Below, in pieces: positions 43,993 to 60,805 of a stretch of DNA of 64,000 nucleotides. A program made the translations under genes and the position numbers. The DNA is from Collinsella sp. GTDB lineage: Bacteria > Actinomycetota > Coriobacteriia > Coriobacteriales > Coriobacteriaceae. The DNA lies in the NCBI GenBank assembly GCA_019414505.1, contig DXLW01000030.1, positions 42,378 through 106,377 of the forward strand, read 5' to 3'. Numbering within the stretch: position 1 is the first letter of the stretch; each line of letters begins with the position of its first letter. The notes under the pieces were generated by a model. The model searched no databases. It was not told the DNA's origin and worked only from the letters and a program-made list of their open reading frames with translations.

Positions 43993-45393
43993 TTAGGCCT
44001 GCTCGGAAGCCTTGGGCTCGTCCTTGTACAGGACAAACGAGACGGCAAAGGAAACCAGCGCGGCGACCGCAAACATGATCGCGTACTGCACGGGTTGGGC
44101 CAGGCACAGCAGGATACCGAAGATACCGGTAACGCCCGTGCCGGAGGCGGCCAGCGAAGTGAGTGCGCAGACCAGGGCACCGCAACCGCCGCCGATGCAG
44201 CCGGCGATGAAGGGCTTAAAGAAGCGCAGGTTCACACCAAAGATGGCAGGCTCGGTAATGCCCATGAAGGCGGACAGGGCCGAAGGAAGCGCCAGACCCT
44301 TGATCTTGGCATCGCGGGTCTTAAAGGCAACGGCGAGTGCGGCGCCACCCTGAGCGATGTTGGCAGCACTGGCGATGGGCAGCCAGTAGGTCACGCCGTA
44401 CTGGGCAAGCTGGCCCAGGTCGATGGCGGTGTACATCTGGTGGATACCGGTAACGACCGTGGGGGCATAGAACAGGCCGACGATAAAGGAACCGATGCCG
44501 AAGGGCAGGGTCAGAAGGGCCTGAATCAGACCGAGGATGGCGTTCTCGGCCCAGACAAAGATGGGGCCGACGGCAACGAGAGTCACGAGCACGGTCACGA
44601 ACACCGAGACAAGCGGAGTCACAAAGAGATCGAACATCTCGGGAACGATCTTGTGCAGGCGCTTCTCGAGGAAAGCGAGAATGGCACAGGCGATGACGAT
44701 GGGGATCACATGACCCTGATAGCCGACCCACTCAAAGCTGTACACGCCGGGGATGACGTTGACCATGGTCTGCACGCCCTCGGAGGCAACCGTATAGGCG
44801 CTCTGCAGCGAGGAGTTGATGAATGCACCACCGACGACGGCGCCCAGGTACGGGTTGGCGCCAAAGGCCTTAGCTGCGGAGTAACCGATCAGGATCTGCA
44901 GAATGCCAAAGGACGTGCCCGAGACCAGGTCGGCAATCTTATAAATAAAGTTATTGGTGTCGAGCGCGATAAAGCCGTTGGAGGCCATAAAGTTGAGGGC
45001 GCTCATAATGCCCAGCAGCAGGCCCGAAGCCACGATGGCGGGGATGATGGGGACAAAGACGTCGCCGAGCACCTTAATGGCACGCATAAAGATGTTCTGC
45101 TGCTGCGCCGCTGCCTCCTTGACCTCGGCCTTGGTGGCAGCCTCGACGCCGCTGAGCGCAATAAACTCGTCGTAGACCTTGTTGACGGTGCCAGTGCCAA
45201 AAATAATCTGGAGCTGGCCCTGGGCCTCAAAGACGCCCTTGGCGCCGTCGATATTCTCGAGGGCCTCCTTGTCGACCTTGGCGTTATCGGCAATCACAAG
45301 GCGCAGACGCGTGGCGCAGTGTGCGGCAGAGACGACGTTGTCGGCGCCACCGATATTGTCGAGCACCTCTTGGGCTGATTTGCGGTAGTCCAT
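43993..45393 (-). CDS. scrA: PTS sucrose-family EIIBC component
   Basis: EIIB motif from ATG 45393 (MDYRKSAQEVLDNIGGADNVVSAAHCATRLRL), followed by a polytopic EIIC. Confidence 0.9.
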   Translation of the reverse strand: MDYRKSAQEVLDNIGGADNVVSAAHCATRLRLVIADNAKVDKEALENIDGAKGVFEAQGQLQIIFGTGTVNKVYDEFIALSGVEAATKAEVKEAAAQQQNIFMRAIKVLGDVFVPIIPAIVASGLLLGIMSALNFMASNGFIALDTNNFIYKIADLVSGTSFGILQILIGYSAAKAFGANPYLGAVVGGAFINSSLQSAYTVASEGVQTMVNVIPGVYSFEWVGYQGHVIPIVIACAILAFLEKRLHKIVPEMFDLFVTPLVSVFVTVLVTLVAVGPIFVWAENAILGLIQALLTLPFGIGSFIVGLFYAPTVVTGIHQMYTAIDLGQLAQYGVTYWLPIASAANIAQGGAALAVAFKTRDAKIKGLALPSALSAFMGITEPAIFGVNLRFFKPFIAGCIGGGCGALVCALTSLAASGTGVTGIFGILLCLAQPVQYAIMFAVAALVSFAVSFVLYKDEPKASEQA

Positions 45394-45449
45394 GACTTCC
45401 CTTTCCTCCAACGGGCGCATCTGCACCCGGCCATCTTTGACACTTACAC

Positions 45450-45463
45450 TGTAATCGTTTTCA
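45450..45463. promoter_or_regulatory. cre / LacI-family operator-like site TGTAATCGTTTTCA (site 1)
   Basis: Fits TGWAANCGNTNWCA at all defined positions. It lies 57 nt upstream of the scrA start. Confidence 0.6.
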
Positions 45464-45475
45464 GTCTCATATGTC

Positions 45476-45489
45476 TGTAATCGTTTTCA
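45476..45489. promoter_or_regulatory. cre / LacI-family operator-like site TGTAATCGTTTTCA (site 2)
   Basis: Identical 14-mer, 26 bp from site 1. Confidence 0.6.
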
Positions 45490-45577
45490 CAGTAGGGTGA
45501 ACGGTAGGAAAAAGCCGGCGAAAGGTAGTTTTAAAGCAAAAAGAGGCGGCTCAGAGACAGGCAGACGTGCCCAAAGC

Positions 45578-46558
45578 CTAGACATTCATAAGCTGATGGC
45601 CGAGCTTGAGCGTCTTTAGACCACTCTCCCCCTCCACGCCATCGAGCGTGTTGAGCAACATATTGGTCGCCTCGACGCCACTGGTCAGGTAGCCATAATG
45701 CACGGTGGGAATGCCGCCCGTCAGCGCGCGCAAAAACGCGTTGTCGCCAAAACCGCTCACGCGGTGTATGCCCTCGCCCATACCGCGAACCTCATCGATG
45801 GCACGCAGCGCGCCCGCCGCCATGGTGTCGGTCGCGCAGGCGACAAACGAAACATCGGGGGCATCGGCAAGCAGCTCGCGCGCAGCGCGATAGCCCGAGT
45901 CGAGCGTAAACGAGCCCAGGCGAATCAAGGCAGCATCGAGTGGGTTACCCGCGGCGCGCAAACCGGCTTCAAAACCGCGGCGGCGTTCATAACCAGCCGC
46001 GCGGTCCTCTTCGGTAACTCCAATGTAGGCAATCTTGCCGTCCACGCGACCCGCAAGCGCACGGCCCAGCTCAAAGGCAGCCTCGTAATCGTCGTGATAG
46101 ACGCACGCCGCACCCTCGACATGCTGGCCGATCAACACAATGGGCACACGGCACGACTCAATCGCGCGACGGTGCTCGTCGGTGATCATGGTTGCCACCA
46201 GCACAATGCCATCGACCGGGTGGTTTTGGAATAAATCGAGGTACTCGAGCTCGCGATCGGGGGCGTTATCGGTATTGGCAAGCAGCATCTGGTAGCCACG
46301 GCGACCAAGCACCTGGCCAATACCGGCGGTAATGCGGCTCACGGATTCCGAGTTGATCTTGGGTACGATGACGCCGATGAGCTTGGTGGAGCCGGTGCGC
46401 AGCGCACGAGCCTGACTAGAACGCACGTATCCGGTCAGCTCAATCGCCTTCTTAATGCGCTCGGCCTTGTCCGTCGATATGTAGCCACCGTTGAGGTAGC
46501 GCGAGACGGCGGCGCTCGAAACGCCCGCCAACTCGGCCACATCTTTCATCTTTACCAC
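45578..46558 (-). CDS. scrR: LacI-family transcriptional regulator (probable sucrose operon repressor)
   Basis: HTH MKDVAELAGVSSAAVSRYLNG plus a periplasmic-binding-protein-like effector domain. I prefer GTG 46558 as the start (the AGGGG box has suitable spacing); ATG 46549 is the alternative. Confidence 0.85.
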   Translation of the reverse strand: MVKMKDVAELAGVSSAAVSRYLNGGYISTDKAERIKKAIELTGYVRSSQARALRTGSTKLIGVIVPKINSESVSRITAGIGQVLGRRGYQMLLANTDNAPDRELEYLDLFQNHPVDGIVLVATMITDEHRRAIESCRVPIVLIGQHVEGAACVYHDDYEAAFELGRALAGRVDGKIAYIGVTEEDRAAGYERRRGFEAGLRAAGNPLDAALIRLGSFTLDSGYRAARELLADAPDVSFVACATDTMAAGALRAIDEVRGMGEGIHRVSGFGDNAFLRALTGGIPTVHYGYLTSGVEATNMLLNTLDGVEGESGLKTLKLGHQLMNV

Positions 46559-46768
46559 GAGCACCCCTGTCATTGAAATCGCTTTCACCATGATACCCGT
46601 GAAGACGGCATCCGAACAAAATCGGCCCACCCAGGTCGAGCAAACGTCAGCGAGCGGGCAACTGCCGTGGCGAGGTGCCGCGAAAGAGGAGCGAAGCGTA
46701 CTTTATGTACGCGAGCGACGGTTTGAGCGGCAGATCGCCCGGCAGATGCCCGCGCAGCGTCGAGCGGT

Positions 46769-46790
46769 CCGGCGTTTGTTAAAACGCCGG
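46769..46790 (-). terminator. Stem-loop directly after the DUF4956 stop (end of the pel-cotH-vtc operon)
   Basis: ccggcgttt-gtta-aaacgccgg. There is no T-tract, so this is weak as an intrinsic terminator. Confidence 0.4.
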
Positions 46791-46797
46791 AACATAA

Positions 46798-47463
46798 TTA
46801 GCCGTGGTATTCGCCGTTGTACTGGATGAGTGTGAGGTCCTCCACGCCGTCAAGCGCGCGAATAGCGTCGGCATAGGGCATATCCACACCGTCCGAGAAC
46901 AGCTCGACGGCCATCTCGACTTTGTCGCCGCGCATGGTCTTGGACTTGACAGTGAAGTTGGTGCGCCCAAACGCGCGCACGATATCGTCGCCTGTGGTCT
47001 GGCCTGTGTAGTGAATGACCATCATGTACACGCGCGCCTTATCCTGATGACTCGCAAAGCCGGCGATCATCACCACGATCACCACCGCCGTGAGCCCCAC
47101 GAGCGCATACATGCCGGCGCCGGCCGTAATGCCCGTGGTAATGGCCCAAAATAGATACAGCAGGTCGAGCGGGTCCTTGACCGCCGTACGGTAGCGGACG
47201 ATGGACAGAGCACCGACCATACCGAGCGAAATGACCACGTTTGTCGAGATCGCGAGCGTAACCATGCAGGTAAGCACGCACATACCCACGAGCGTCACGG
47301 CAAAACTGCGCGAATACACCACGCCGGTAAAAAAGCGCTTGTACACGTAGTAGATCAGGATACCCATGGCGAGCGCCACGAGCAGCGAAAGGCCAATCTT
47401 GGCGGGATCGACCTGGCCAAACGCCTCCAAGACGGAGTTCTTAAAAAAGTCCCTGGTGCTCAT
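46798..47463 (-). CDS. DUF4956 domain-containing membrane protein
   Basis: 221 aa with four hydrophobic segments. The LSIVRYRTAVKDPLDLLYLFW block is one I associate with DUF4956, and a soluble C-terminal domain follows. It sits 3 nt after the VTC gene. Confidence 0.75.
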   Translation of the reverse strand: MSTRDFFKNSVLEAFGQVDPAKIGLSLLVALAMGILIYYVYKRFFTGVVYSRSFAVTLVGMCVLTCMVTLAISTNVVISLGMVGALSIVRYRTAVKDPLDLLYLFWAITTGITAGAGMYALVGLTAVVIVVMIAGFASHQDKARVYMMVIHYTGQTTGDDIVRAFGRTNFTVKSKTMRGDKVEMAVELFSDGVDMPYADAIRALDGVEDLTLIQYNGEYHG

Positions 47464-47466
47464 GGT

Positions 47467-48258
47467 CTAAATATCCCCTCGGTTCTCAAAATCCGATTCC
47501 CAGTAATTAAATCCGCGAAGGTAGGCGGTCTTTTCGTAACACAGGCAGTACTTGGAGACCGCCGTAAGCTCGGCCGCTCCCGGCGGCACCATATCGCGCA
47601 CCAGCTGCGGGCAAAACTCCGTAAACTTGACCTCCATCACCAGCTTGCCGGGCTCCAGGACCGGCAGCGCGGGCAGCGTCGCGTCAAAGATATCGAAGCT
47701 TCCCACCGCGGCACGCACGTTCATGTCAAACGTGATGCGCACGGTGCCCTCATCCATCACCCACGGCTCGCGCTCGTAGTCCACGATGGTCCGCGGGCGC
47801 ATCATATTGCAGATGCACTCGATGTAGAACTCGCGACAGAGCGGATAAGGACTCCTCAGCAAAAAGTCGTAGTCGCCAGCCAGAATCTGCTCAAACTCGC
47901 CACGCGTGAGCGGCGCGTCCTCCTTGTAGATCCAGCTGCCGTACTTCTTTTTGCGCTCGAGCTTAATCACCTTGTCGCTGCCGTTATAGATGCGCACGCG
48001 ATACTTTTTGCGCATGAGAATGCCGGCGTCTTTTTCCTCGTAGGCCGAGTTGCAGTAGTCGTCAAAGTACAGGCTGCGAATGGTGTAACCGCCTGCCCGC
48101 GCATGCTTGTCCAGCTTAAAAACCGGCGCCATGCGACAGGCAAGCGCGGCGTGCTCGCCCTCGTTAATGAGATATTTGAGCTCGTGGCGGTAACGCTCCT
48201 GCGTGGCACGCACAGGCGGGGCCGCCAAGCGCTCAAGCAGCGCGCTAGCCCTCCTCAT
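47467..48258 (-). CDS. VTC-domain (polyphosphate polymerase-like, triphosphate-tunnel) protein
   Basis: RYRHELKYLI, IRSLYFDD, KKYRVRIY and KLERKKK beta-strand basic motifs are typical of the VTC/CYTH-like tunnel fold. The gene overlaps the CotH stop by 14 nt. Confidence 0.78.
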   Translation of the reverse strand: MRRASALLERLAAPPVRATQERYRHELKYLINEGEHAALACRMAPVFKLDKHARAGGYTIRSLYFDDYCNSAYEEKDAGILMRKKYRVRIYNGSDKVIKLERKKKYGSWIYKEDAPLTRGEFEQILAGDYDFLLRSPYPLCREFYIECICNMMRPRTIVDYEREPWVMDEGTVRITFDMNVRAAVGSFDIFDATLPALPVLEPGKLVMEVKFTEFCPQLVRDMVPPGAAELTAVSKYCLCYEKTAYLRGFNYWESDFENRGDI

Positions 48259-50014
48259 ACGTGTCCTCCACGACCTTACCGCCGTCTTGCACGTAAAAAC
48301 ACTTCATGCCGTAGTGCTTGCCGTCGTCGGTCACATAGTAGTCAAACGCATCTTGCGTATAGCCGTCGGAGTTGGTGGCACGCACGCGCACAAAATACTG
48401 GCCGGTATCGGGCGCATCACAGGTCACCTCGGGAAGCAGCACGTCCTCGGCCTTAAAGACCACGTCGCTTATGGCATAGTCACGCGCAAGCTCCACGGTG
48501 TAGCGAATGTCGCGCGCCTCAAAGTCGTAGGACGCATCCCAGTTAATACGCAGCTTACCGTTATCGATCTGCGGCACGCCGATGTAGAACGGCATGGGCT
48601 TTTTAAAACTCTCGCGAAAGCTCTTGTAGTTCTCCTCGATCTCGGAGGGAATCGCCGCGGCGATCTGCTCGTATTGGTCCTTGGTGACAGGCAGATGGTC
48701 GATATCGGGCGAAGCAAAGACCAGCGATTCAGTAACCTCGCGGTAGTGCTTGATCATCTTGCTCAGGCGTGCCTCGGTCATATACGAGCGCAGGTCCTTG
48801 ACGGCACGGTCGAGATCGCTGCGGAACGATTTGCTGCGCAGCGCACGATTGAACAGAACGTTGCCCCAGTAGTTGCTTACGCCGCGCTCCCAGCTCGCGT
48901 AGTCCGAAAACCCGGTAAGAGAAAGCTCCAGCTTACGAAGCATGCCATCGTTATCCCAATCTAAAAAGTACCAGGTATTTGAGTTGAGAGGACTGTACAG
49001 ATAGCAGTTACGGTTCTGCGTATCGCAGTTGCCCGTCAGAATCTGAAACGCCAGCCAATAAACCAGATTCTCGGAATCAAAGTGGGTGTCGAGCACGTCA
49101 TCGATCTTTTGCGATTCGTCGTTGAGCGCATCGAGCATCTCGATGAGCTTCGTGTGGTCCGTATCGCCCTTAATCTCGAGCATGCCTTCAAAGCTTGCCT
49201 GGTTGTAGTCGGGATCATCGGCAAGCTTAATGGTGTCCTCGTAGCGATGGAAATCAAAGCTGTTCACCTTGTACAGGTGCCCGCTCTTATCCAGGCCATG
49301 TGCCTTAAGCGCCGTCTTGTTGAGCTGCTCCACCTGCGTAAACAGGCCGTAGTCCTCAAAGGTATCGTTGGACTTTTCGGTCTGGTCGCACACCCACAGA
49401 TGCACAAACTGCGTGCGCAGGCCCATCATCTGGGGAATCCCGCGGATAAGGTCGTAGGCCATCTTGTTGCGAAAACGCATACCCTCGCCCATGTGCTTGT
49501 TGAGCGCAATCGCGCGCTGTTGGCGCCAGGTACCCTTGCCCTTTTTGAGCTCCACCTTGTAATTCTTCTGCGAGTTCATGCTCGATGTCTGACCGCGCAC
49601 CTGCACGGTAGCATTGGGCGCTTCCTCGCCATAGCCAACCTCGCCGGCAACCGGGCCGTCTTCGTCGCCCGGCTGTAGCAGGCCCATAACCTGATAGCGC
49701 GTCACGCCCATGTCGGCATAGTCATACACCGAGTACGTGTTGATCTCGGCCCAGCTGTGGTCGGTGTTCTCGGAGCTGTTGCCGCGTGAGACCGTCAAGT
49801 ACATGGTCACAATGCCCGAGTCATCGTAGACCTCGTAGAGCTCGTCCTTGTCGCGCAGGTGCTTGGCCTCATTCGAGGCCTCAGCCTTTTTAATCTTGTC
49901 CTGCTTTTTGACCTTTTTGGTCGAGGAGTCTTCCTGCACCGAGCAGCCCGAAAGCAACAGCGCACCGGCAGCCGCCTCAAACAGGCGACGGCGAGACATC
50001 ATCCTATCGGTCAT
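48245..50014 (-). CDS. CotH-family atypical kinase, predicted lipoprotein
   Basis: Lipobox LLLSGC. CotH-type block NCYLYSPLNSNTWYFLDWDNDGML. C-terminal beta-rich (Ig/FN3-like) region. The start overlaps or abuts the pelG stop. Confidence 0.8.
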   Translation of the reverse strand: MTDRMMSRRRLFEAAAGALLLSGCSVQEDSSTKKVKKQDKIKKAEASNEAKHLRDKDELYEVYDDSGIVTMYLTVSRGNSSENTDHSWAEINTYSVYDYADMGVTRYQVMGLLQPGDEDGPVAGEVGYGEEAPNATVQVRGQTSSMNSQKNYKVELKKGKGTWRQQRAIALNKHMGEGMRFRNKMAYDLIRGIPQMMGLRTQFVHLWVCDQTEKSNDTFEDYGLFTQVEQLNKTALKAHGLDKSGHLYKVNSFDFHRYEDTIKLADDPDYNQASFEGMLEIKGDTDHTKLIEMLDALNDESQKIDDVLDTHFDSENLVYWLAFQILTGNCDTQNRNCYLYSPLNSNTWYFLDWDNDGMLRKLELSLTGFSDYASWERGVSNYWGNVLFNRALRSKSFRSDLDRAVKDLRSYMTEARLSKMIKHYREVTESLVFASPDIDHLPVTKDQYEQIAAAIPSEIEENYKSFRESFKKPMPFYIGVPQIDNGKLRINWDASYDFEARDIRYTVELARDYAISDVVFKAEDVLLPEVTCDAPDTGQYFVRVRATNSDGYTQDAFDYYVTDDGKHYGMKCFYVQDGGKVVEDTYEEG

Positions 50015-51548
50015 CAGAACCTCCCCAATGCTTGCGATACACGCGAACTACTGCGCGCTCAAACGCGCCGTGCGGCACGCCCTTATGTCGGCCTTCCTCA
50101 TAGCGCTGTTCGGCACGGTCGAGCAAGCGGCCCAGCTGTGTAAAGCGACCCGTCTTGTCGGTCGCCACAATGGGCTGCTGGCTCAGGATACGATACGGCA
50201 AGTTGGAGGTATAGGTATCGAGCCGCAGCAGCGCCACGATAAAAAACACCGCCGCACCCAACAAAAAGCCAAAGCCGTAAAACTGCTGCGGCAAAAGCAA
50301 CGAAGCGGCAGTCGCCAGCCCGGCCACACCGGCAAACAGGCCCGAAGCCAGCACGGCCCCCTTATAGTCGGTAAAGTACAGCAAGATGAGCATCACCGTA
50401 TTGCCCACGGCATACAGGCCATAGCCCACGCACAGCGTGCGAAAATACCCGTGCATCAGGTTGTTAAAGCCCAACGGTAGGGCCGACAGCACCGTGGTCT
50501 CGAGCGAAATGACCGCCGCGGTCACAAACAGCTGCTTGAGCGCACAAAAGCGCAGTTCGCTGTTAAGCGTGGAGAGCATCTCCTCCTCGGCCACCACAAT
50601 GTCGCCCACCACGCCGCCGTCATTGAACAGGCTGTAGTAGTCGTGGTAGCGCGGATAGAAGTTGACCTCGACCGAGACCACAAAGTTGACGGTCGTGACC
50701 AGGATCGTCAAAAACGCAATGAGCGCCGGCACATCGTAGTAGGGCGCACCATAAAACAAGCCCTTGACCTGCACGCCAATAGGACCGGCCCAAATAATCA
50801 CCAGGTGCGCAAAAAGTCCCAGATTGGTTAACAGGCCCGTGAGCGCCAGCGGCATAAACTGATCGAGCCACTGCAAAAAGGGCCAGGGGCTGCGGTCGCT
50901 CTGAGGAAAATACCGGTACAGCAGCACCACGTCCCAGGCGAGCATGACGCCGTAGCCCAGAGCAATTGACGCCAACAAGCCCTCGACCGGCGGCAGTCCC
51001 AGCGCCAGCGCGGCCAGGGCGCACAGGCACGCCACGCCAATGGCAGCCGCAAAGCTGCACAGGATGCCGCGGTAATCCTTGATGGCCGTGAGGTAGCTCA
51101 TGCCGTTCCAGTTGACGATCATAATGTTGAACAGCCACAGACATAGCAGCCCCTGCAGCAGCGTGGCGCCCGAGAACAGCAAAAAGACACCGTAGAGCAC
51201 CGTGCCCGCAACGAGCATGACAGCATTGGAGCCCCAAAACGAAGGCAGAATCTCGTCCTCGCGCTCGGCAAACAACATATCAGCCAAAAAGCGCGTGACC
51301 GGCATGGAGAAAAAGCTCGTGAGCAAAAGTGAGGCCAGCAGTGTGTAGGTCACCATGCACACCAGCAGATCCTGGTTGGCACGGCCCACACCCCACAGAC
51401 CGCACAGCACCAAGATACCCACCTGGAGCAGCACGCCCAACAGCATGGGACCCGTGCACACAATGCCGGCGTAGCCATAAGCGCGCATCGTGGCAAACAG
51501 GCCCCTGCGCCTAAACAGGCGCTTGAGCTCAAAACCAATTCCGGCCAC
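50004..51548 (-). CDS. pelG: Pel exopolysaccharide export/membrane protein PelG
   Basis: The N-terminus MAGIGFELKRLFRRRGLFATMRAYGYAGIV is the characteristic PelG start. About 12 TM segments. Confidence 0.85.
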   Translation of the reverse strand: MAGIGFELKRLFRRRGLFATMRAYGYAGIVCTGPMLLGVLLQVGILVLCGLWGVGRANQDLLVCMVTYTLLASLLLTSFFSMPVTRFLADMLFAEREDEILPSFWGSNAVMLVAGTVLYGVFLLFSGATLLQGLLCLWLFNIMIVNWNGMSYLTAIKDYRGILCSFAAAIGVACLCALAALALGLPPVEGLLASIALGYGVMLAWDVVLLYRYFPQSDRSPWPFLQWLDQFMPLALTGLLTNLGLFAHLVIIWAGPIGVQVKGLFYGAPYYDVPALIAFLTILVTTVNFVVSVEVNFYPRYHDYYSLFNDGGVVGDIVVAEEEMLSTLNSELRFCALKQLFVTAAVISLETTVLSALPLGFNNLMHGYFRTLCVGYGLYAVGNTVMLILLYFTDYKGAVLASGLFAGVAGLATAASLLLPQQFYGFGFLLGAAVFFIVALLRLDTYTSNLPYRILSQQPIVATDKTGRFTQLGRLLDRAEQRYEEGRHKGVPHGAFERAVVRVYRKHWGGSDDR

Positions 51549-51551
51549 CGG

Positions 51552-52979
51552 CTACTCCCCCTCTCTGGGCAGGTTAAACGCACACGCCGTCTCGTCGTAC
51601 AGCGCGCGATAGTTGGCGAGCATCTGCTCGTGCAAAAAGTACGTGGCAACGCGACGCTGCCCGCGCTCCCCCATCTCGATACGGCGGGCGCGGCTCACGC
51701 ACATGCGCTCCATGGCATCAGCCAAGCCCTTGCGATACATGGGCGGCGTCACAAAACCCGCCACGCCAAAGTCGTCGCCCGGGGCGCCCTCGAGCAGCTC
51801 GCGGCAGCAGCCCACCTCGGTCGTCACGCAGGGACGGCGCGCTGCAAGCGACTCCAGCACGCTGAGCGGCTGGCCCTCGGAGATGCTCGTTAAAATGGTA
51901 AAGTCGAGCTTTTCCATGTACTCGACCACGTTAACGCGGCCGGTAAATATCAGGTCGCGCACGCCCAGGGTGTCAACCAGCGCATGGCACTCGGCGCCGT
52001 ACTCTTCGTCGTCCACGCCGCCCATGATGTGCAGGCGCACCTTGGGCAGGCGCTCATGCAGCTCAAAGAAGGCATAGATCATGGTCTTGACGTCCTTGAT
52101 GGGCGCCAGGCGCACCACCGCGCCAATGTCCACCCAGCCGTCATCGGGCTTTAAGGGAATGTCCTTAAAGCGGTCGAACTGGATGCCGTTGGGGATGACC
52201 AGGCATTTGTCCGCATCGCAGCCCATATCGATCTGCGTCTTGCGGGCGTTATGGAACAAACTGGTCACGCGGAAGGCACGGCGGTAGATCTCCTCCGAAA
52301 GCAGGTAGAAAAAGCGAATCCAGCGGTCCTTAAACGACGGCACCACCCAGTCGGCGCGAATGATCTCTTCCTCACGCTCGCGGGTATAGATGCCGTGCTC
52401 GGTCAGCAGTACCGGCGCATGGGAAACGCTCGAGCCCAGGCAGGCGAGCAGACCACCGTAGCCGGTCGAGATAGCGTGGTACACATCGGCCACCGGCACC
52501 TCGCTGCCCAGCAGGTAGAGCACTGGCAGCAGCATAGAGCGCATGGTGTGGAATGCGTCGGCAAAGGGCGTGTAGGGGTACTCGGTCAGACACACGTCGC
52601 GGAAGATGTCCATAAACGTTCGGCTCTGTAAAAACGAGAGCGGATGCACACGACGGCGCTGGAAGATATCGAACAGCACGTCCCAATCCGGATTGGAGAG
52701 CGACACCAGGCGGCGTAGCGCCTCGCGCTCGCGGTCGTTAAAACTGGCTTCGTGCTGCTCGCCCGAAAGCCGCAGGGCGTCGTCCAGGAACACCTCGTGC
52801 ACCTCGACCACGTTGCCGGGCAGCTCGTAGACAAACTTGCCGCGGTCGGCAGCATGCGCGCCAATCACCCACAACACAAACTCGTGCTCTGGCATGGCCG
52901 TAATGTAGCCGTGCATCCAGGTGGATACGCCGCCGTGTACATAGGGGTAGCAACCCTCGAGTACCAAGCAGATTCTCAT
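51552..52979 (-). CDS. pelF: Pel glycosyltransferase PelF (GT4 with DUF3492-type N-terminus)
   Basis: MRICLVLEGCYPYVHGGVSTWMHGYI N-terminal signature and a GT4 C-terminal EGQPLSVLE motif. Confidence 0.85.
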   Translation of the reverse strand: MRICLVLEGCYPYVHGGVSTWMHGYITAMPEHEFVLWVIGAHAADRGKFVYELPGNVVEVHEVFLDDALRLSGEQHEASFNDREREALRRLVSLSNPDWDVLFDIFQRRRVHPLSFLQSRTFMDIFRDVCLTEYPYTPFADAFHTMRSMLLPVLYLLGSEVPVADVYHAISTGYGGLLACLGSSVSHAPVLLTEHGIYTREREEEIIRADWVVPSFKDRWIRFFYLLSEEIYRRAFRVTSLFHNARKTQIDMGCDADKCLVIPNGIQFDRFKDIPLKPDDGWVDIGAVVRLAPIKDVKTMIYAFFELHERLPKVRLHIMGGVDDEEYGAECHALVDTLGVRDLIFTGRVNVVEYMEKLDFTILTSISEGQPLSVLESLAARRPCVTTEVGCCRELLEGAPGDDFGVAGFVTPPMYRKGLADAMERMCVSRARRIEMGERGQRRVATYFLHEQMLANYRALYDETACAFNLPREGE

Positions 52980-54856
52980 TTGTCGCCACCCTCCTTGCGC
53001 TCGATCGTCACGGTCTTATCATTTGCCTTGAGCAGATACAGATTGCCCGTAAGGTGCGTCAATTCGCCACCCGTCACCGCACCCGGCTCGCCGTTGTTGG
53101 CGCGGAACATGAGCCACGCCTCATCGTGGAAATTGCCCAGGCTGAGCGCCCAGGCATCCGCGCTGGTATCCACGCTCACCGTAACCGACGAAAAGCGCTG
53201 GATGGCACCGGAGCACTCCGACGCCGTCTGGTGCCGCAGGTCGGGCGCGGATTTGGTAAGCCACTCCAGGTAGTCGACCAGGCCGCCCTTGTAGACCTCC
53301 CAGCCCTCCTTGGCACCACGATCGGGATCGAGCAAGTCGTCCGGGTGCATAAAATGCGTGCTCACGTAGTGCATGTTGAGCTCGGACACGGCTGCCAGGC
53401 GCATATAGGAATCGTCGACCATGCCGCCCGAGACAATACGTGGCTGCTCCACAATGCCGTCGCTCGCCACGCCAAACTCCTGCACGTAGGGCAGGTCGGT
53501 GCCATCCTCAAAATACGTGCTGGCGATGGTCTTAATGCGCGGAACGTCGGTGCCGATGAGCTTGCGCGCTCGGGCCGAAAGGATATTCGACGGCGGTACG
53601 TAAACCGAGCCATGAGCGTTGGGCAGAACCTCGTCCTGAAACGCGATAAGTTCGTTGAGCGAAGCGACGAGCGTCTCTTTGTTCTTCCAGGTCTTGTAGA
53701 CGTACAGCGTGCCGTAGTCGGTGTCCCAGAGCGCGAGCGGCTGATGGTTGTAGCCGTGAAAGCCCAGCTCGCCGCCCATCTGCAGCAGCATGCCGCCAAA
53801 ATATCGAAACTGCGTGGTATCGGGTTGGCGCGCGGGCTCGGTCTGGTTGACCGCGTCCTCGTAGTTTTCGATCATCACGCCGGTATAGCGAATGCCATAT
53901 TTTTGCGCGAGCTTTTGCAGATCGGGCCACCAGACCTTGGTGTAAAAATCCGCAATGGAAAGGCCGTAGTCACGCTTGATATAAGTACCATCGCCCGAGG
54001 GCACGGGGCTAGGAAAGTCGTCCAAATAGAACACGGCGCTGTTGATGACCGGATAGGCCGTAGCATCGCCCAGCAGACTGATCGCCGCGGCGAAAAAGCC
54101 GCGCATGACCTTGTCGTAGATACCGATATTGCACACCACGGTGCGCCCGCTACCGCAGTCATTAGACCAAATGAGCGGCGCGCCCGCATCGCCAGTCTTA
54201 GCCCACTCACGCGCCGTCTCGCGCAGCGATACTGAAAGCGACGAATCAAAGGGGTCCGAGAGCTCGTAGCGCTCTCCCCCGCCCAGCATAAAGTCCTCAC
54301 TCGGCACAATGCTTTCGGCTTTTACATAGTCATATCCGGCCGATTCAATGCCAAGCTTGGAGGCAATCACTTGCAGATAGCTCGAGTTATCCGGCGGCAT
54401 GGCGAGCATAAGCGAACCGCCGGCACTCACCCAACTCATAATGTCGCTCAGGTGCGTACCGAGCCCATCGAGCGACGGCATGAGCAAAATCACGCGATCG
54501 AAGGAGGTCAGCGAGGGAATGGCATCCGCACCATCCAGGGCAAGATCCACGTCGCGATGGGCGATCTTCATGTCCAGCAAAATCTGGTCGAACTGGTCTT
54601 TGACGTCGTCGACGCCATCTTGGTCCGAGTCTGTAATGACCAGGCACGTGGGCTTTTGGCCAAAGATTGCCGAGGAGGCCGGCACCGCGTCGTTGGCGGC
54701 AAGCATCCCCAGCCTATGCTGGCCCGCACTGTACTGCACGCCGGCACGCTCCACCAGCAGCACGGCGGCCATGGCAATAAAGACCGCCCACACCACGAGG
54801 AGTCCCATCCAACGAAAGCGGCCCACACGGTCTCGGATATGTTGCGCCACGCTCAT
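52976..54856 (-). CDS. pelA: DUF2194 / PelA-deacetylase-like extracytoplasmic protein
   Basis: N-terminal TM anchor and CE4-like metal motifs FYLDDFP and FHGYNH. The start ATG 54856 overlaps the pelE stop (ATGA) after a GGAGGAGG box. The position between pelE and pelF matches the Gram-positive pel layout. Confidence 0.7.
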   Translation of the reverse strand: MSVAQHIRDRVGRFRWMGLLVVWAVFIAMAAVLLVERAGVQYSAGQHRLGMLAANDAVPASSAIFGQKPTCLVITDSDQDGVDDVKDQFDQILLDMKIAHRDVDLALDGADAIPSLTSFDRVILLMPSLDGLGTHLSDIMSWVSAGGSLMLAMPPDNSSYLQVIASKLGIESAGYDYVKAESIVPSEDFMLGGGERYELSDPFDSSLSVSLRETAREWAKTGDAGAPLIWSNDCGSGRTVVCNIGIYDKVMRGFFAAAISLLGDATAYPVINSAVFYLDDFPSPVPSGDGTYIKRDYGLSIADFYTKVWWPDLQKLAQKYGIRYTGVMIENYEDAVNQTEPARQPDTTQFRYFGGMLLQMGGELGFHGYNHQPLALWDTDYGTLYVYKTWKNKETLVASLNELIAFQDEVLPNAHGSVYVPPSNILSARARKLIGTDVPRIKTIASTYFEDGTDLPYVQEFGVASDGIVEQPRIVSGGMVDDSYMRLAAVSELNMHYVSTHFMHPDDLLDPDRGAKEGWEVYKGGLVDYLEWLTKSAPDLRHQTASECSGAIQRFSSVTVSVDTSADAWALSLGNFHDEAWLMFRANNGEPGAVTGGELTHLTGNLYLLKANDKTVTIERKEGGDK

Positions 54857-55758
54857 CGGGCCTCCTCCCCATCGCGCCAAAACGCCAACTTTTCGCGGTT
54901 GTCGGCGCTCAAATACACATGTTGCTTGTCAATCGCATCGATCACACAGTGGACCTCGTCACCGTCGCGGCGCATCACGGCCAGGCGCAGGCAAAGCATC
55001 CAAACCTCCTGCTCCTCGGGCACGTCGAGTACCAGCTGGTCGGTCACGGCCTGCGCCTCGTCGATCTGTCCGACATCGGCCAGCGCCGTCGCGTATCGAA
55101 TGCGCAGCTCAAGGGTATCCTCGCGCTCGCAGCGACGCGCAAGCAGGCGCGCGTACTGTTGGCGCTGAATCTGAGCAACGCGCCCCTCAGCCAAGCCCGA
55201 GCCCAAGTATTCACCAAGAAAATCACAGTATTCGTTGAGGTTTTGCGCGCTCGGGTCCGTCTTAAAGGCACGCTCCAGCTGCTGCAGTTTAAGGTCGGAC
55301 TCCTTGGAGATCTGCGCCACCGCCGTCGCGGCATAGTGCGCCACCTCAACGTCGTCGTTAAGCTTAGCCGCCTGCAACTGCGCCAGGTACGCGTCGGGCT
55401 CCTCGGTGAGCATGGAGAGCATTAGGCGGCGCCGGTATGCCGGGTCGTTGACGATGAGCGCCTCCTCGAGCGGGACCACGCCCGCATCGGCGTCACGGTC
55501 GTGCACCTGGATGCTGCGATGCAGGTCGTCGTTGAAGCGCAGCGACTCCAGCGCAGACTCTTTCAGTCCCTCGCCGAACACCGCGCTGCGGACCGATAGC
55601 AGAACCACCAGCAACGGGCCCCACAGCGGCACCAGCACTATCACAGCCAGCATGTGCCCGCGCACCGGCAGCAGGCCCAGCTTCATGAGCGTCCACAGCA
55701 TCAGGCAAACCAGCGCATGAATCAGCAGCAAGACGGCAGCAACGACAAGCGAGATCAA
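54853..55758 (-). CDS. pelE: PelE-like membrane protein (2 TM plus TPR-like helical repeats)
   Basis: Two N-terminal hydrophobic helices are followed by an alpha-helical repeat region. The call rests on architecture and operon position, not on sequence motifs. Confidence 0.6.
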   Translation of the reverse strand: MISLVVAAVLLLIHALVCLMLWTLMKLGLLPVRGHMLAVIVLVPLWGPLLVVLLSVRSAVFGEGLKESALESLRFNDDLHRSIQVHDRDADAGVVPLEEALIVNDPAYRRRLMLSMLTEEPDAYLAQLQAAKLNDDVEVAHYAATAVAQISKESDLKLQQLERAFKTDPSAQNLNEYCDFLGEYLGSGLAEGRVAQIQRQQYARLLARRCEREDTLELRIRYATALADVGQIDEAQAVTDQLVLDVPEEQEVWMLCLRLAVMRRDGDEVHCVIDAIDKQHVYLSADNREKLAFWRDGEEAR

Positions 55759-57938
55759 GCGACACTCCCCTCACCGTCACCGGTGTAAGAGACGTGCTGC
55801 AGCAGCGCCACGATGTCCTCGCCGTCGACGGGCTCCACCGCAATCTGCTTTGCGCTCAGGCGCTCGCGGATAATGGGCAGATCGCACGCCTTTGCCTGGC
55901 GCATAAGCAGGTAGAGCACGTCGCCGTCGACCAAGCCCGCCGCGTCACTCTCGCGGATTGCCGACCCAATTGCGCCCACCAGCTTGCCGACAGGCTCCAC
56001 GCCCGGTACCACGCGCAGGAGCAAAAAACTCCCCATCTTGCTATCTGCCAGCGCTTGCTCCGCCGCGAGCTCTTGGCCAAAGGCAGCCTGCTTGAGCACG
56101 CAAGTGCCGCCAACGCAGCGTTTATCCTGCGCCACCGCCTCATAGTCAAAGGCACGGCCCAGCGCGCTTTCGACCAGCCCGCACAAGATGCGGAACAGGT
56201 TTTGATAATAGAGGGTCATTTGGTTTTCGGCCGCACTACGCACAAAGATCAACACGGCGGGTGCCCCGTCGCGCTCGATCGTGTATCCAAACATGGGAAG
56301 CCCCGGCGTCAGCTCGCGGTTCACCCACAGGTTCGAACGACCCCCGTCGCCCAAAAGAGGTGCAAGCTGCTCAAGCGTGAGCGAGCGTGCGGCATCTTCG
56401 GCAATCGCGGGACTTGCTGCCACCAGGCGTGCAAATGCCCCGCCCGAAACATGGTAGATCGCCACCGAATCGTTCTCGAGGATCTCGCCCAGAAGCTCGC
56501 AGCACTTGCGATAGATGTCGCGAGGATTGAGCACATCGAGCTCCTGCGTCACGGCAAAGATCTTGCCAAAGCTGTCGTGGCGACCCACGATCTGGCGCCT
56601 GTACGCGCGCTTGTCCTCGATCGCGTCGTGGTAGAGCTGCGTAAGGAACGTATTGCGGTTGCGCACGAGCTCGTTTTGATCGCGCTCTGCCCTAATGGCT
56701 TCACTGTTGCGCAGCTGCACATAGCCGCACACGGCACCCACCACAAAGTACACAATAAACGGCAGCCAGTTGGACGGCTCGTAGAACAGGCCCTGGAAGG
56801 TATAGCCGTACTGAGTAAAGTAGCTCGCGGCCAAACCCACCGACGCCAGCAGCGCCGCAACCAGGCCAAAATCGAGCCCATACAGCGTGCCGATCAGTAC
56901 CACGTACAGCAGGCGGTAGTCGAGCACGTTAAGCTGAGCAGACTGCGAAAACACCAGCTCCAGGCCCTCAAAGAGCACCCAGGCCAGCGCGGTCTCCAGG
57001 CATTTGATGGGCAGTGTCCGCCCGCGCATGCGGTCGATGGCGGCACGCAGCGGATGGCGCTTGCCCGCGAGGGTCTGCTCCCAGCGGGCGTGTATGGTCG
57101 AAAGATCGCGCAGCACGTCATAGCGCTGGAACCACCCGTAGCGCGTGCGGACGGTATCGCTCGGAGCAATGGAGACGACGGCGTCCCCGTCGTAGGTAAT
57201 GTCGAGCCCCGGGAACAAGCCCTTGAGCGCCTCGCCCAGGTCTCCCACGGTGTGGGCAAAGCTATCCGGAACCTCGAGTTCCTCGAATGTGGCATCCCAG
57301 CTGTCGAAGATGCGACGCACCAGAACGGCCAGCTCCTCGGCGCAGAGGGCACCGAGCGGTGAGTCCGCCCCAGCCCTCATGACAGCAGAGCCTTGCGAGC
57401 ACGCCTCGAACAGCGGGGTCAAAATCGGGTCTTCCAGCGTGGGCGAGGCGGTGTACAGATACGGCACGCGCAAGATCTTGGCCTGAATGCCGTCGCGGAC
57501 CGCATAGTAGCGGCACAGGTCGTTGGCCGCACGGGCAATGATGCCCTTGCCGTTTTGCCCCGCAACGTCCACCGCACCGTCCGCTCCCATGGGACCAGTC
57601 ACAAACAGCAGCTGAATCTGGCGACCCATGCAAGCTCGAAAGACGGAGCGCAGCAGCTCGATGTCGCCAACGGCCTCGGTATGCGGCGTGAGATAGGTAG
57701 AGAGGTAGACCACACGGTCGAATTCGTAAGCCTGGTCCAGGTGCTGCAGCAGCTCTTTCCAAGACGCATGGAGCGACGACCCGTCGCGGCGCGCCTCGTT
57801 GGCCGCCACGACCTGAACATGGTCACCGGGAAACGCCTTGGCACAAAAGTCGTCATCGACATACGCGGTATTGCCAACAACCAGCACTTCCACCGTGCGC
57901 TCCCCCTCCCCAAATTTAGCTTTTGCCATGGTAAACAT
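55755..57938 (-). CDS. pelD: PelD-like c-di-GMP receptor with an extra N-terminal degenerate Rossmann/SDR-like domain
   Basis: 727 aa. It has an N-terminal ~290-aa Rossmann-like region without an intact GxxGxxG (VLVVGNTAYVDDDF) and about 4 TM helices. A GAF-like region and a degenerate GGDEF domain follow. RESDAAGLVDGDVLYLLM aligns to RxxD-x5-GGDEF. Confidence 0.7.
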   Translation of the reverse strand: MFTMAKAKFGEGERTVEVLVVGNTAYVDDDFCAKAFPGDHVQVVAANEARRDGSSLHASWKELLQHLDQAYEFDRVVYLSTYLTPHTEAVGDIELLRSVFRACMGRQIQLLFVTGPMGADGAVDVAGQNGKGIIARAANDLCRYYAVRDGIQAKILRVPYLYTASPTLEDPILTPLFEACSQGSAVMRAGADSPLGALCAEELAVLVRRIFDSWDATFEELEVPDSFAHTVGDLGEALKGLFPGLDITYDGDAVVSIAPSDTVRTRYGWFQRYDVLRDLSTIHARWEQTLAGKRHPLRAAIDRMRGRTLPIKCLETALAWVLFEGLELVFSQSAQLNVLDYRLLYVVLIGTLYGLDFGLVAALLASVGLAASYFTQYGYTFQGLFYEPSNWLPFIVYFVVGAVCGYVQLRNSEAIRAERDQNELVRNRNTFLTQLYHDAIEDKRAYRRQIVGRHDSFGKIFAVTQELDVLNPRDIYRKCCELLGEILENDSVAIYHVSGGAFARLVAASPAIAEDAARSLTLEQLAPLLGDGGRSNLWVNRELTPGLPMFGYTIERDGAPAVLIFVRSAAENQMTLYYQNLFRILCGLVESALGRAFDYEAVAQDKRCVGGTCVLKQAAFGQELAAEQALADSKMGSFLLLRVVPGVEPVGKLVGAIGSAIRESDAAGLVDGDVLYLLMRQAKACDLPIIRERLSAKQIAVEPVDGEDIVALLQHVSYTGDGEGSVA

Positions 57939-58130
57939 GCGTATTGTACGCTGTCAATGTAGGCCAAAGGCAACTTTAAAGCTGTTTTAAGAACTTTTTC
58001 AGACGGGAAGCGACTCGCGCCTGAGCCAGAGAGCCCTACACGTGCCGCTGCACGGCGGAGAAAGGCGAATCCACTACCCCTCAGGCATAATTCCTGAGCA
58101 AAATCAAGCAGAGCACACGGCTTTTTGCGC

Positions 58131-58353
58131 CACTTTAAGACGTAATCGGGATGTGGCGAGAGGCCAAATTCGGAAGTGCGGGGAAAACCAAAGGAATGCT
58201 GACCAGACCCCCGTTTTAGGCTTCCGCGACCTGCGGTTTTGATACAAAAAAACCGCGTTGTGCTCGAAGGTTTTCGTTTTTTCCCCGCACTTCTGTAATT
58301 ACATCTCTGGATCGAGGGCGCAGGCAATGGTGACGACATCCACGATAGCGCCC
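58131..58353 (+). repeat. ~220-bp structured direct repeat, copy 1
   Basis: Roughly 80-85% identical by eye to 60314-60533. It has an internal 15-bp inverted repeat (58173-58187 / 58279-58293) that encloses an 8-bp hairpin (58233-58240 / 58249-58256). Confidence 0.85.
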
Positions 58354-58535
58354 CCCTATGCCTGATACCAAAATCGTTCCATAGGGACCCGTTTCCCAAT
58401 GGGATGATTCTTCACAAAGGGCATTAAGGCGCATGAGAACATGGTAGAGGCAAGCAAGCGCGCTTCCACGTTTTCGCCCATGGTGACCACGGTATAATCC
58501 AACGAGACAAGCAACGAACGGGAAAGGCAGCGCGG

Positions 58536-59918
58536 ATGAACCTGGGCAGCGAGAGCGAGACCGTCGAGTTCAAGAAGTCCACTGGCGAGCATAAAGAAGC
58601 ACTGCAAGCCATCAGCGCCATGCTGAACAAGCACGGCCGCGGCGAGCTCTACTTCGGCGTGAAGGACAACGGCGATGTCATCGGCCAGGATGTCAGCGAC
58701 GCAACGCTGCGCCAGGTGACGTCGTGGGTGTCCGACAAGATCGAGCCCGCGGTGTTCCCGACGGTCGAGTGCCTCGACGCCGATGATGGGCTGCGATACA
58801 TCAAAATTGCCTTCTCAGGTGCCGACGCCCCCTACTCCGCCGACGGACGCTACTTCACCCGCGTGGGGACTTCGAACAAAGCGCTGTCGGCCTCGGAGCT
58901 GAGCGCCATGGTCGTCAAGCGTGAGCGCGCCCGTAGCCCGTGGGACTCGCTGCCGTCCGGCAGGCCCGTCTCCGACGCCGACGAGCAGGCGGTGCGTGAC
59001 TTCGTCGCGCGCGGCGGCAGGGCCGGACGCGTGGGCGGCGGGTTCGCCGGCGTGGAGGACACCTTGGCAAGGCTCGACCTCGTCGCGCCCGACGGCAGCC
59101 TAAGAAACGCCGCGGTGGAGCTGTTCTGCGAGGGATCCGACACCTACCCCAGGATGAAGCTGGGGCTTCTGGGCGGCAACACCAAGGCCAAGATCCTCGA
59201 CCTGCGCCGCGAGTGCGGCACCATGCTCAAGCTGCTCGACTTCGCCGAGTACTTCGTGACGTCGAACATCAGGCGCGAGTTCGTCATCGGCGAGACGGGC
59301 ATGTACCGCAAGGAGATCCCCGAGATCCCGGCCGAGGCCATCCGCGAGGCGGTTGCCAACGCGCTGTGCCACCGCGACTACACCACCGGCACCGCCGTCG
59401 AGGTCAACGTGTTCATGGACACCGTCCAGATCGTGAGCCCGGGCCTGTTCCCCGAGGGCGACTCGCCGCAAGAGCACCTAGACGGTACCGCGAGCGAGTT
59501 CGGCCTCCGAAACCCCGCGATCGCGCGCACCCTGTTCCGCGCCGGCGTCATCGAGCAGTACGGCACGGGCATACCGCGCATCAAGGAGGCCTGCGAGGCA
59601 GCCGGCGTGAGGTTCCGCTTCGAGCAGACCGTCAACAGCACCGTCGTCGTCTTCGAGCGTCCTGGGTTACAGAAAGCGGCCTTCAGGAGAACCGCGGCCG
59701 ACAACCGACCGCTCCTCAGCGAGCGCGAACGAGCAGCGATGGCAATTGCCGCCGCTCAGGGGAAAATCACGACCTCCGACCTCGCGCGGGAGTCCAATGT
59801 CGGTAGGAAAACGGCCTCGAAGACTCTGAAAGACCTTGCCGGGCGAGGCCTGTTGGAATGGGTAGGGAAAAGCCCGAAAGACCCGCACCAGTTCTACAAG
59901 ATGCCAAGCGAAGTTTGA
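58536..59918 (+). CDS. AlbA_2 (Schlafen-type) domain + HATPase_c_4-like + C-terminal winged-HTH protein ('RecG-like putative transcriptional regulator' family)
   Basis: N-terminus SESETVEFKKSTGEHKEAL...ELYFGVKDNGDVIG (AlbA_2). Central NALCHRDY and QYGTGIPRI motifs. The C-terminus ITTSDLARESNVGRKTASKTLKDLAGRGLL is a wHTH. A TATAAT hexamer lies at 58493-58498. Confidence 0.82.
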   Translation: MNLGSESETVEFKKSTGEHKEALQAISAMLNKHGRGELYFGVKDNGDVIGQDVSDATLRQVTSWVSDKIEPAVFPTVECLDADDGLRYIKIAFSGADAPYSADGRYFTRVGTSNKALSASELSAMVVKRERARSPWDSLPSGRPVSDADEQAVRDFVARGGRAGRVGGGFAGVEDTLARLDLVAPDGSLRNAAVELFCEGSDTYPRMKLGLLGGNTKAKILDLRRECGTMLKLLDFAEYFVTSNIRREFVIGETGMYRKEIPEIPAEAIREAVANALCHRDYTTGTAVEVNVFMDTVQIVSPGLFPEGDSPQEHLDGTASEFGLRNPAIARTLFRAGVIEQYGTGIPRIKEACEAAGVRFRFEQTVNSTVVVFERPGLQKAAFRRTAADNRPLLSERERAAMAIAAAQGKITTSDLARESNVGRKTASKTLKDLAGRGLLEWVGKSPKDPHQFYKMPSEV

Positions 59919-59974: not shown

Positions 59975-60029
59975 GGGCACTACTGAGTAATCTACTGGGC
60001 ACTGCTGAGTAATCTACTGAGTAGTGCCC
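59975..60029. repeat. Two 22-nt tandem repeats plus an inverted partial copy
   Basis: gggcactactgagtaatctact / gggcactgctgagtaatctact / gagtagtgccc. It starts 57 nt after the stop of the AlbA_2 gene. Confidence 0.8.
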
Positions 60030-60081
60030 AAGCGCGAGTTGGCAAGTCCGCCGAAGCCCAGAGAAACGGCTCCGAAGAATA

Positions 60082-60139
60082 TACTGACCGCTACTGACCG
60101 CTACTGATCGCGGCATTCGGCAGGCCCGCCGAATGCCGC
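60082..60139. repeat. Three 10-nt tandem repeats (tactgaYcgc) running into a 12-bp GC-rich hairpin
   Basis: tactgaccgc x2, then tactgatcgc, then gcggcattcggc-aggccc-gccgaatgccgc. Confidence 0.8.
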
Positions 60140-60313
60140 GGTCTCCCGAGACTAGCAGAGCCGCCCTTATTGTTAGCGCTGCCGAAGCAAGCCCTACTTC
60201 AGCAGCAACTTGAATTTTCGTGCGATGAGCCTCCCCGGAGCCAAGAGCCTTTTGCCCTAATCACAACACCGCAATTCAAGCACCGCAGAAAACTCCATTA
60301 GCGATGAACCAGC

Positions 60314-60685: not shown

Positions 60686-60698
60686 GTGGAGGCAGAAC

Positions 60699-60800: not shown

Positions 60801-60805
60801 GCGAA

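Follow-up and report, generated by a model that had tools for sequence, protein, structure and literature searches.

The CotH-VTC-DUF4956 gene trio of the Collinsella pel operon: a published linkage and a putative phosphate-handling module

Introduction

Pel is a major polymer of biofilms and bacterial aggregation, and the five core pel genes make this cationic, partly deacetylated polymer of N-acetylgalactosamine and galactosamine (GalNAc/GalN) and move it across the membrane. Here, we analyzed a 64,000-nucleotide (nt) stretch of contig DXLW01000030.1 from Collinsella sp., an abundant gut genus; this whole stretch is called the window, and coordinates refer to it. On its minus strand, at positions 46798-57938, five pel genes are followed directly by genes for a CotH-like atypical kinase, a VTC-domain protein, and a DUF4956 membrane protein (the trio). 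Why would three such genes be lodged in an exopolysaccharide locus, is the arrangement particular to this strain, and what might the trio do there? A preliminary description of the locus had regarded the linkage of pel and trio as undescribed. We find that the cluster is a known, extended form of the pel operon and that the trio also occurs outside pel loci, and we consider it somewhat better than an even bet that the trio is a captured phosphate-handling module that tunes Pel.

Layout and linkage of the eight genes

All eight family calls exceeded the curated cut-offs of Pfam and NCBIfam (Table 1), confirming the gene identities first given from sequence. The core genes lie on one strand in the order pelD, pelE, pelA(DA), pelF, and pelG, and cotH, VTC, and DUF4956 follow pelG contiguously, which is the arrangement of the extended Gram-positive pel operon. 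As taken from the open reading frame (ORF) listing, the junctions from pelD to DUF4956 measure -4, -28, -4, +3, -11, -14, and +3 nt, negative values being overlaps. The preliminary description had given 4-nt overlaps for pelD/pelE and DUF2194/pelF, 3-nt gaps for pelF/pelG and VTC/DUF4956, an overlap of the pelG stop with the cotH start, and a 14-nt overlap for cotH/VTC, all of which were recovered. Its shared ATGA at pelE/DUF2194 does not hold for the listed ORF but is obtained by taking the ATG at 54856, after GGGGAGGAGG, as the start of DUF2194; the junction then becomes -4 nt, and this start, with ATGA common to the pelE stop, is the probable one. A purine-rich, Shine-Dalgarno-like run precedes every start of the eight genes.

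The layout, with its overlapping stops and starts, fits one transcription unit extending from a promoter 5' of pelD to a hairpin 3' of DUF4956, as had been proposed. When the cluster was scanned for an internal break, the pelG-cotH junction contained no promoter-like or terminator-like consensus hit, and hits within the cluster as a whole were at chance level (4 promoter-like hits found versus 3.5 expected and 16 terminator-like hits versus 14.5 expected). A second promoter serving the trio was thus rejected, because no signal rose above chance and because the genes overlap.

The arrangement is not an accident of one strain. A scan of genome contigs with a diverse VTC alignment, from which the best 80 of 595 relatives ranked against the window VTC were kept, yielded 68 Collinsella-type loci and 12 from Firmicutes. 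pelG lay immediately 5' of cotH in every locus having sequence upstream of cotH (69 of 69), which argues against a strain-specific origin; the 52 loci whose upstream sequence extends 8 kb or more all have the eight genes in the same order. The window VTC protein is 96-100% identical to proteins of many Collinsella contigs, and a search with CotH matched a named Collinsella aerofaciens protein. The locus set also takes in Faecalibacterium, Blautia, Roseburia, Abiotrophia, Oribacterium, and Streptococcus, and pelE is syntenic throughout the related loci. Metagenome and Bifidobacterium loci have the same order with 4-nt pelG/cotH overlaps, and the gene calls of other contigs from distant lineages show 4-nt overlaps at both pelG/cotH and cotH/VTC. 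Between Collinsella and Faecalibacterium prausnitzii, the trio proteins are 62-73% identical, similar to PelF and PelG (72-80%), whereas PelD and PelE reach only 42-43% (Table 1). These values indicate that the trio is under constraint similar to that on the synthase genes and that the whole cluster has moved between phyla.

Within Collinsella, pelD varies on its own. In L001-L067, one class of copies is about 97-99% identical to that of the window and another about 83-86%, and a third class of about 76-78% is paired with pelE at about 80%, with downstream genes at 93-100%; these classes suggest that the 5' end of the operon has undergone allelic replacement or recombination. Two contigs under other names, L013 (CAVKNR010000085.1, labelled Sodaliphilus sp.) and L056 (CAVCRP010000014.1, labelled uncultured Ruminococcus sp.), carry the Collinsella operon with most genes at 90-100% protein identity (pelD and pelE of L056 at 76-80%) and are most likely mis-binned Collinsella contigs rather than cases of recent transfer.

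Comparison with published pel loci

Whitfield et al. (2020, PLoS Pathog) described contiguous cotH-like, poly-phosphate polymerase (PPP), and DUF4956 genes together with pelDEA(DA)FG (PMC7112168, S4 and S5 Figs). In that study, the second accessory gene group covers streptococci and clostridia, bifidobacteria carry a diguanylate cyclase/phosphodiesterase (DGC/PDE) gene instead of DUF4832, the accessory group is correlated with a PelD whose N-terminal domain is epimerase-like, and the supplementary table includes Collinsella aerofaciens C11 and indica (PMC7112168). The linkage is therefore already known, in C. aerofaciens genomes among others, and the claim of novelty was wrong; as an operon, the cluster adds nothing beyond this paper and one from 2025 on Streptococcus intermedius (mBio; PMC12345266).

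The window and the extended Gram-positive cluster share the contiguous order pelD-E-A(DA)-F-G-cotH-PPP-DUF4956, a long PelD, a secreted CotH with a C-terminal FN3-like domain, and a DUF4956 protein with transmembrane and ACT-like parts; the locus of Bifidobacterium pseudocatenulatum is colinear with the window. Collinsella differs in having no ninth gene, which elsewhere is a DUF4832 glycoside hydrolase or an EAL/GGDEF gene. DUF4832 gave no tblastn match anywhere in the window, and neither it nor a DGC/PDE gene adjoins DUF4956 in any Collinsella locus examined. A DUF4832 gene overlaps the DUF4956 stop in F. prausnitzii, a Lachnospiraceae metagenome-assembled genome, Abiotrophia, Streptococcus, and two metagenome loci, and B. 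pseudocatenulatum has an EAL/GGDEF gene at the ninth position. The missing gene is a minor variation on the published architecture. Bacillus cereus ATCC 10987 has the same five core genes in the same order, and its PelD is alike in carrying an RxxD I-site and a degenerate GGDEF, but it differs in its short PelD, its divergent galE and pelA(H) accessory genes, and its lack of cotH, VTC, and DUF4956 (PMC7112168).

In the window PelD, about 300 amino acids (aa) precede the DUF4118 transmembrane region and form a putative, degenerate part resembling SDR/epimerase proteins. This N-terminus aligns with homologues that match PF01370 (L086, L092, L093, and L095); unlike those extended-cluster homologues, the window protein falls below the Pfam Epimerase threshold, with no match even at E = 10, and its nucleotide motif is degenerate (GNTAY versus GxxGxxG). 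In the C-terminal part, an intact RxxD I-site (RESD) stands five residues before a degenerate GGDEF (RESD-AAGLV-DGDVL). RxxD is kept in clostridial PelD relatives and absent from the truncated proteins of Abiotrophia and Streptococcus. Since its I-site is intact, Collinsella PelD is probably a cyclic di-GMP (c-di-GMP) receptor.

The trio outside pel loci

The preliminary description had called CotH-VTC-DUF4956 a recurrent neighborhood, and the trio was indeed met away from pel. More distant VTC relatives were sampled by plasmid tblastn and ten context look-ups. Where the VTC of a sampled relative is 36-46% identical to that of the window, the trio lies outside pel in every case, and all sampled relatives at 51% identity or more are pel-linked; DUF4956 adjoins VTC wherever context was sampled. 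Plasmid pNP95 of Pseudobutyrivibrio xylanivorans carries the order GT2-CotH-PPP-DUF4956-GT4-acyltransferase, with pyruvyl transferases farther along. A Planococcus maritimus plasmid carries VTC-DUF4956-CotH-hypothetical-HEAT-glycosyltransferase, resembling NELoc-2 of Clostridium perfringens (PMC11677781). In both of the latter, CotH and VTC (with or without DUF4956) adjoin glycan enzymes, but they differ from the window in lacking pel genes, in the order VTC-DUF4956-CotH, and in a VTC only about 36% identical. Two further arrangements are stand-alone, with VTC-DUF4956 and a convergent CotH gene among housekeeping genes.

In four loci of capsule or O-antigen type, VTC-DUF4956 follows a gene for a protein of about 910 aa with a C-terminal right-handed beta-helix. 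VTC overlaps this gene by 8 nt in three of the four (L083 and L089 among them), and in the fourth (L091) an inorganic pyrophosphatase gene lies between the two. Pfam found no CotH domain in the ~910-aa proteins, and their N-terminal half aligned with the whole CotH domain as a weak hhalign match (probability 20%, E 1e-3).

These occurrences contradict the 2025 paper, whose authors did not find the three-gene synteny outside the Pel locus (PMC12345266). From a sample that is small and non-random, the distribution is most simply read as the capture, by one clade of pel operons, of a module that was older and autonomous.

Properties of the trio proteins

Single-sequence searches of CotH, VTC, and PelD against the sequences of the PDB gave no useful match, and profiles were needed. 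A profile of 15 CotH sequences matched CotH of B. cereus (5JD9) at E 8e-29. Aspartates D331 (GNCDTQNRN) and D354 (LDWDNDG) of the window protein align with the catalytic and metal-binding Asp pair of the Bacillus fold (5JD9/5JDA) and are invariant even in distant, non-pel members. The corresponding residues of Bacillus subtilis CotH are D228 and D251, whose mutation inactivates the kinase (PMC7821199). With both catalytic aspartates kept, the Collinsella protein looks catalytically intact. Its AlphaFold2 (AF2) model (predicted local distance difference test [pLDDT] score of 63.6) has 5JD9 as its best PDB match (Foldseek E 6.5e-11), followed by FN3 matches, and its C-terminus is modeled as an FN3-like beta-sandwich. 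The leader, SRRRLFEAAAGALLLSGC, holds a twin-arginine-like (RR) motif and a lipobox (LLSGC), in agreement with the earlier lipoprotein assignment, and a lipobox is present in nearly all pel-linked CotH proteins. Such a leader would place the kinase outside the cytoplasm, and predicted export makes it a lipoprotein kinase on the outer face of the membrane. Collinsella CotH differs in this leader and in the FN3-like tail from the Bacillus protein, whose substrates CotB and CotG are spore-coat proteins; the lipoprotein signal after the RR motif predicts export rather than a spore-coat location. CotH-like genes are also found in nonsporulating hosts (PMC7112168).

A profile of 45 VTC sequences matched yeast Vtc4 (3G3Q) at E 1.6e-10. 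In the alignment, Vtc4 residues K200, R264/R266, K281, K294, Y359/R361, R373, E426/K428, and S457/K458 correspond to K27, R86/R88, K102, K111, Y160/R162, R173, E208/K210, and S234/K235 of the window protein. The catalytic and tunnel residues beyond R264, R266, and E426 are those attributed to Hothorn et al. 2009. All of the checked positions are invariant or at least 90% conserved among the 45 diverse relatives. The change R264A/R266A/E426N inactivates Vtc4 (PMC9911596). The window protein has the VTC domain only, with no signal peptide, SPX, or transmembrane domain. It thus looks like a cytoplasmic triphosphate-tunnel enzyme that resembles the polyphosphate (polyP) polymerase core of Vtc4 and appears catalytically intact. 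Bacterial VTC proteins are not known to act as polymerases. The eukaryotic VTC complex (Vtc4; 3G3Q, 8I6V) has a homologous tunnel domain that is always paired with a membrane protein, as is the window VTC; however, the bacterial protein has neither the SPX sensor nor a fused Vtc1-type channel domain, and its partner is a separate, unrelated DUF4956/MgtC-like neighbor. Elsewhere in the VTC family, P0141, P0146, P0168, P0186, and about 20 other representatives (41-47% identity) bear N-terminal extensions of 130-360 aa that have a strongly basic, Pro- and Gln-rich composition and look intrinsically disordered; in the long relatives (365-586 aa), which were checked for a fused partner domain, the extensions hold no Pfam domain.

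The AF2 model of DUF4956 (pLDDT 67.6) shows about five transmembrane helices and a C-terminal domain with pLDDT near 80. This domain, of beta-alpha-beta-beta-alpha-beta order, is ACT-like (Foldseek 3IBW, TM 0.77, root mean square deviation of 1.9 Å), and ACT domains were its top compact matches. A helical membrane domain joined to an ACT-like C-terminus is an MgtC-like architecture as far as the model goes, and the published description of SIR_1592 as transmembrane plus ACT-like agrees (PMC12345266).

Operon ends and other features of the window

The candidate promoter 5' of pelD matches the consensus at 10 of 12 positions, but only about 10 nt lie between its TTGACA element and the listed ATG at 57938; the true pelD start is probably a GTG near 57893, after GGGGAGGGGGAG and about 45 nt downstream of that ATG. 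Upstream of pelD, no riboswitch or other Rfam family was found in 57800-58700. The hairpin reported after DUF4956 is present (Table 1). It folds at -27.8 kcal/mol in context, is more stable than shuffled sequences (z = -2.74), and is kept in most Collinsella loci with a compensatory change of TTT/AAA to TTC/GAA, which is evidence that the structure is selected. In L007, L010, L018, L020, L027, and L060 and in L041, L044, and L047, the conserved hairpin is lacking, and one of two other junction sequences follows DUF4956, indicating that the 3' boundary of the operon was rearranged more than once.

Beyond the hairpin, a lacI-phosphotransferase system (PTS)-GH32 block (sucrose/fructan) separates DUF4956 from genes for a pyridoxal phosphate enzyme, IMPDH, and LeuRS. 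About two-thirds of the Collinsella loci have this block; in others (e.g., L021, L034, L041, L046, L054, and L056) it is absent and a gene of about 335 aa stands directly after DUF4956. The block looks like a variable island at the 3' border of the operon. At the other end of the window, a low-GC island (47-48% versus about 60% elsewhere) holds a DRT2-type defense reverse transcriptase gene that runs off the window end, adjoined by an ORF without family and a Schlafen-type gene. An Rfam scan of the whole window found only two tRNAs, in tandem and 38 nt apart.

Table 1. Positions and assignments of features in the 64,000-nt window and of the ~910-aa proteins in three related loci (positions in those loci). 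Identity is between Collinsella and F. prausnitzii proteins.
Feature	Position	Strand	Assignment and support	Identity
pelD	55755-57938	-	727 aa; DUF4118 (Pfam)	43%
pelE	54853-55758	-	Membrane N-terminus plus TPR (TPR_19, TPR_14 matches); TTG start	42%
pelA(DA)/DUF2194	52976-54880	-	Deacetylase-like; PF09960, 568.7 bits, full length	65%
pelF	51552-52979	-	GT4 glycosyltransferase; NCBIfam PelF equivalog NF038011, 320 bits (cut-off 100); DUF3492 plus Glycos_transf_1	80%
pelG	50004-51548	-	Polytopic membrane component of Pel synthase/export machinery; PF16933, 459.7 bits, full length	72%
cotH	48245-50014	-	CotH-like atypical kinase, lipoprotein; PF08757, 218 bits	62%
VTC	47467-48258	-	VTC-domain protein, 263 aa; PF09359, 108 bits	71%
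DUF4956	46798-47463	-	Membrane protein; PF16316, 45.5 bits	73%
Promoter-like site 5' of pelD	57928-57957	-	TTGACA, then TACAAT/TACCAT; consensus match only
Terminator-type hairpin	46768-46791	-	10 bp, UCCGGCGUUU-UAAC-AAACGCCGGA, no U tract; 6 nt past DUF4956 stop
lacI-PTS EIIBC-GH32 block	42344-46630	-
Low-GC island	60001-64000
DRT2-type reverse transcriptase	62981-63997	-	PADLOC Drt2, E 2.6e-56; Pfam RVT_1
ORF without family	60797-62134	+	445 aa
Schlafen/AlbA_2-HATPase_c_4-winged helix-turn-helix protein	58536-59918	+
tRNA	23292-23363	-	Rfam, 68.8 bits
tRNA	23401-23472	-	Rfam, 68.8 bits
~910-aa beta-helix protein	L083:7255-10008
~910-aa beta-helix protein	L089:7282-10008
~910-aa beta-helix protein	L091:6680-9406

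Possible role of the trio

Deletions that the preliminary description had proposed were already published for S. intermedius, where each of the three trio genes was deleted (SIR_1591-1594 region; PMC12345266). All core pel genes are essential for Pel in this species, and Pel was still produced in all three trio mutants (PMC12345266). Loss of CotH (SIR_1594) lowered Pel, loss of DUF4956 (SIR_1592) raised it, and each cut aggregation by more than 50% in sputum medium (PMC12345266). Deletion of VTC had no significant phenotype.

We favor, at somewhat better than even confidence, the view that the locus is the known extended pel operon together with an autonomous, portable module for handling phosphate, which one clade of such operons took up. 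In this module, a cytoplasmic Vtc4-like tunnel enzyme would act on a nucleoside triphosphate or polyP and would work on DUF4956, a putative ACT-gated membrane protein, and CotH would be a catalytically competent kinase anchored on the outer face of the membrane. The module would be dispensable for Pel synthesis and may tune the retention of Pel on the cell and its behavior through phosphorylation or polyP chemistry at the surface.

Several points weigh against this view. The trio proteins are not known to have biochemical activity in any bacterium. Co-transcription in Collinsella is a prediction from sequence, the CotH model is poor in its N-lobe, and the low confidence of the DUF4956 transmembrane model makes a role as a conduit conjecture. 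An extracytoplasmic kinase would have no obvious supply of ATP. Finally, deletion of VTC (SIR_1593) in S. intermedius caused no significant change in aggregation (PMC12345266), which speaks against a simple linear scheme where CotH function depends on what VTC makes.

Alternatively, CotH may be a regulatory protein kinase, as Whitfield et al. (2020) proposed, that phosphorylates a protein of the Pel machinery and switches synthesis independently of c-di-GMP, with VTC and DUF4956 supporting or sensing. The CotH family members whose function is known phosphorylate proteins on Ser/Thr (PMC7821199), the Collinsella protein retains the catalytic residues, the S. intermedius CotH mutant makes less Pel (PMC12345266), and the PelD proteins of streptococci and Abiotrophia have no GGDEF or I-site, so another control would be useful there. 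However, CotH is predicted to face the side opposite to PelF and the cytoplasmic PelD sensor domains, Collinsella, bifidobacteria, and clostridia keep the trio alongside a PelD whose I-site is intact, and the module recurs on its own and in unrelated glycan loci, which suggests that its substrate is not specific to Pel. Because of this opposed topology and this recurrence, we rank the captured-module explanation higher and regard a regulatory kinase as unlikely, if still worth entertaining.

A second alternative, in line with the preliminary description, is that VTC and DUF4956 make and extrude polyP that cross-links Pel ionically as an exported matrix partner, with CotH modifying or anchoring that partner. 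Pel is cationic, VTC retains catalytic residues of the Vtc4 type and has DUF4956 as its neighbor in all sampled contexts, and eukaryotic VTC couples polyP synthesis to membrane translocation (PMC9911596); the published S. intermedius mutants lend weak support to such an anionic partner (PMC12345266). Yet DUF4956 is unrelated to the Vtc1-type channel and its low-confidence model reveals no evident channel, the VTC mutant has no significant aggregation defect (PMC12345266), and the module also lies beside polymers with no reason to be cationic and where there are no glycan genes at all. This cross-linker is doubtful; the lack of a significant phenotype in the VTC mutant and the existence of stand-alone trios place it below the captured-module explanation. 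Least probable of all is that the trio serves cellular phosphate or energy homeostasis, has been transferred horizontally along with pel, and affects Pel only indirectly: the MgtC-like architecture of DUF4956, with its transmembrane helices and ACT-like part (PMC12345266), the stand-alone trios among housekeeping genes, and the spread of the cluster across phyla (e.g., Collinsella and F. prausnitzii share 80% identity in PelF and 71% in VTC) would suit it, but distant lineages retain the overlap of the pelG stop with the cotH start, no exception occurs among the 69 loci, the trio is repeatedly inside other surface-glycan clusters overlapping its upstream gene, and an exported kinase misfits a purely cytoplasmic role.

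Beyond the captured-module explanation, and as a speculation to which we lend slender credence, VTC-DUF4956 might be the prokaryotic counterpart of the eukaryotic VTC synthase/translocase and deliver polyP or phosphoryl groups to the outer face of the membrane, where CotH would draw on them to phosphorylate surface glycans or matrix proteins. The portable module would then serve both Pel and capsule- or O-antigen-type loci, in some of which the kinase is perhaps fused to a polysaccharide-binding beta-helix.

In sum, nearly all of the sampled Collinsella lineages carry the pel/trio cluster, which is common to Actinomycetota and Firmicutes at 60-80% protein identity. The apparently intact enzymes, the predicted extracellular kinase, and the occurrence of the module beyond Pel together favor a general cell-surface phosphate chemistry over a regulation specific to Pel. 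With the linkage to pel already described, what remains of interest is the biochemical function of the three proteins and the broader connection of the trio to surface glycans.

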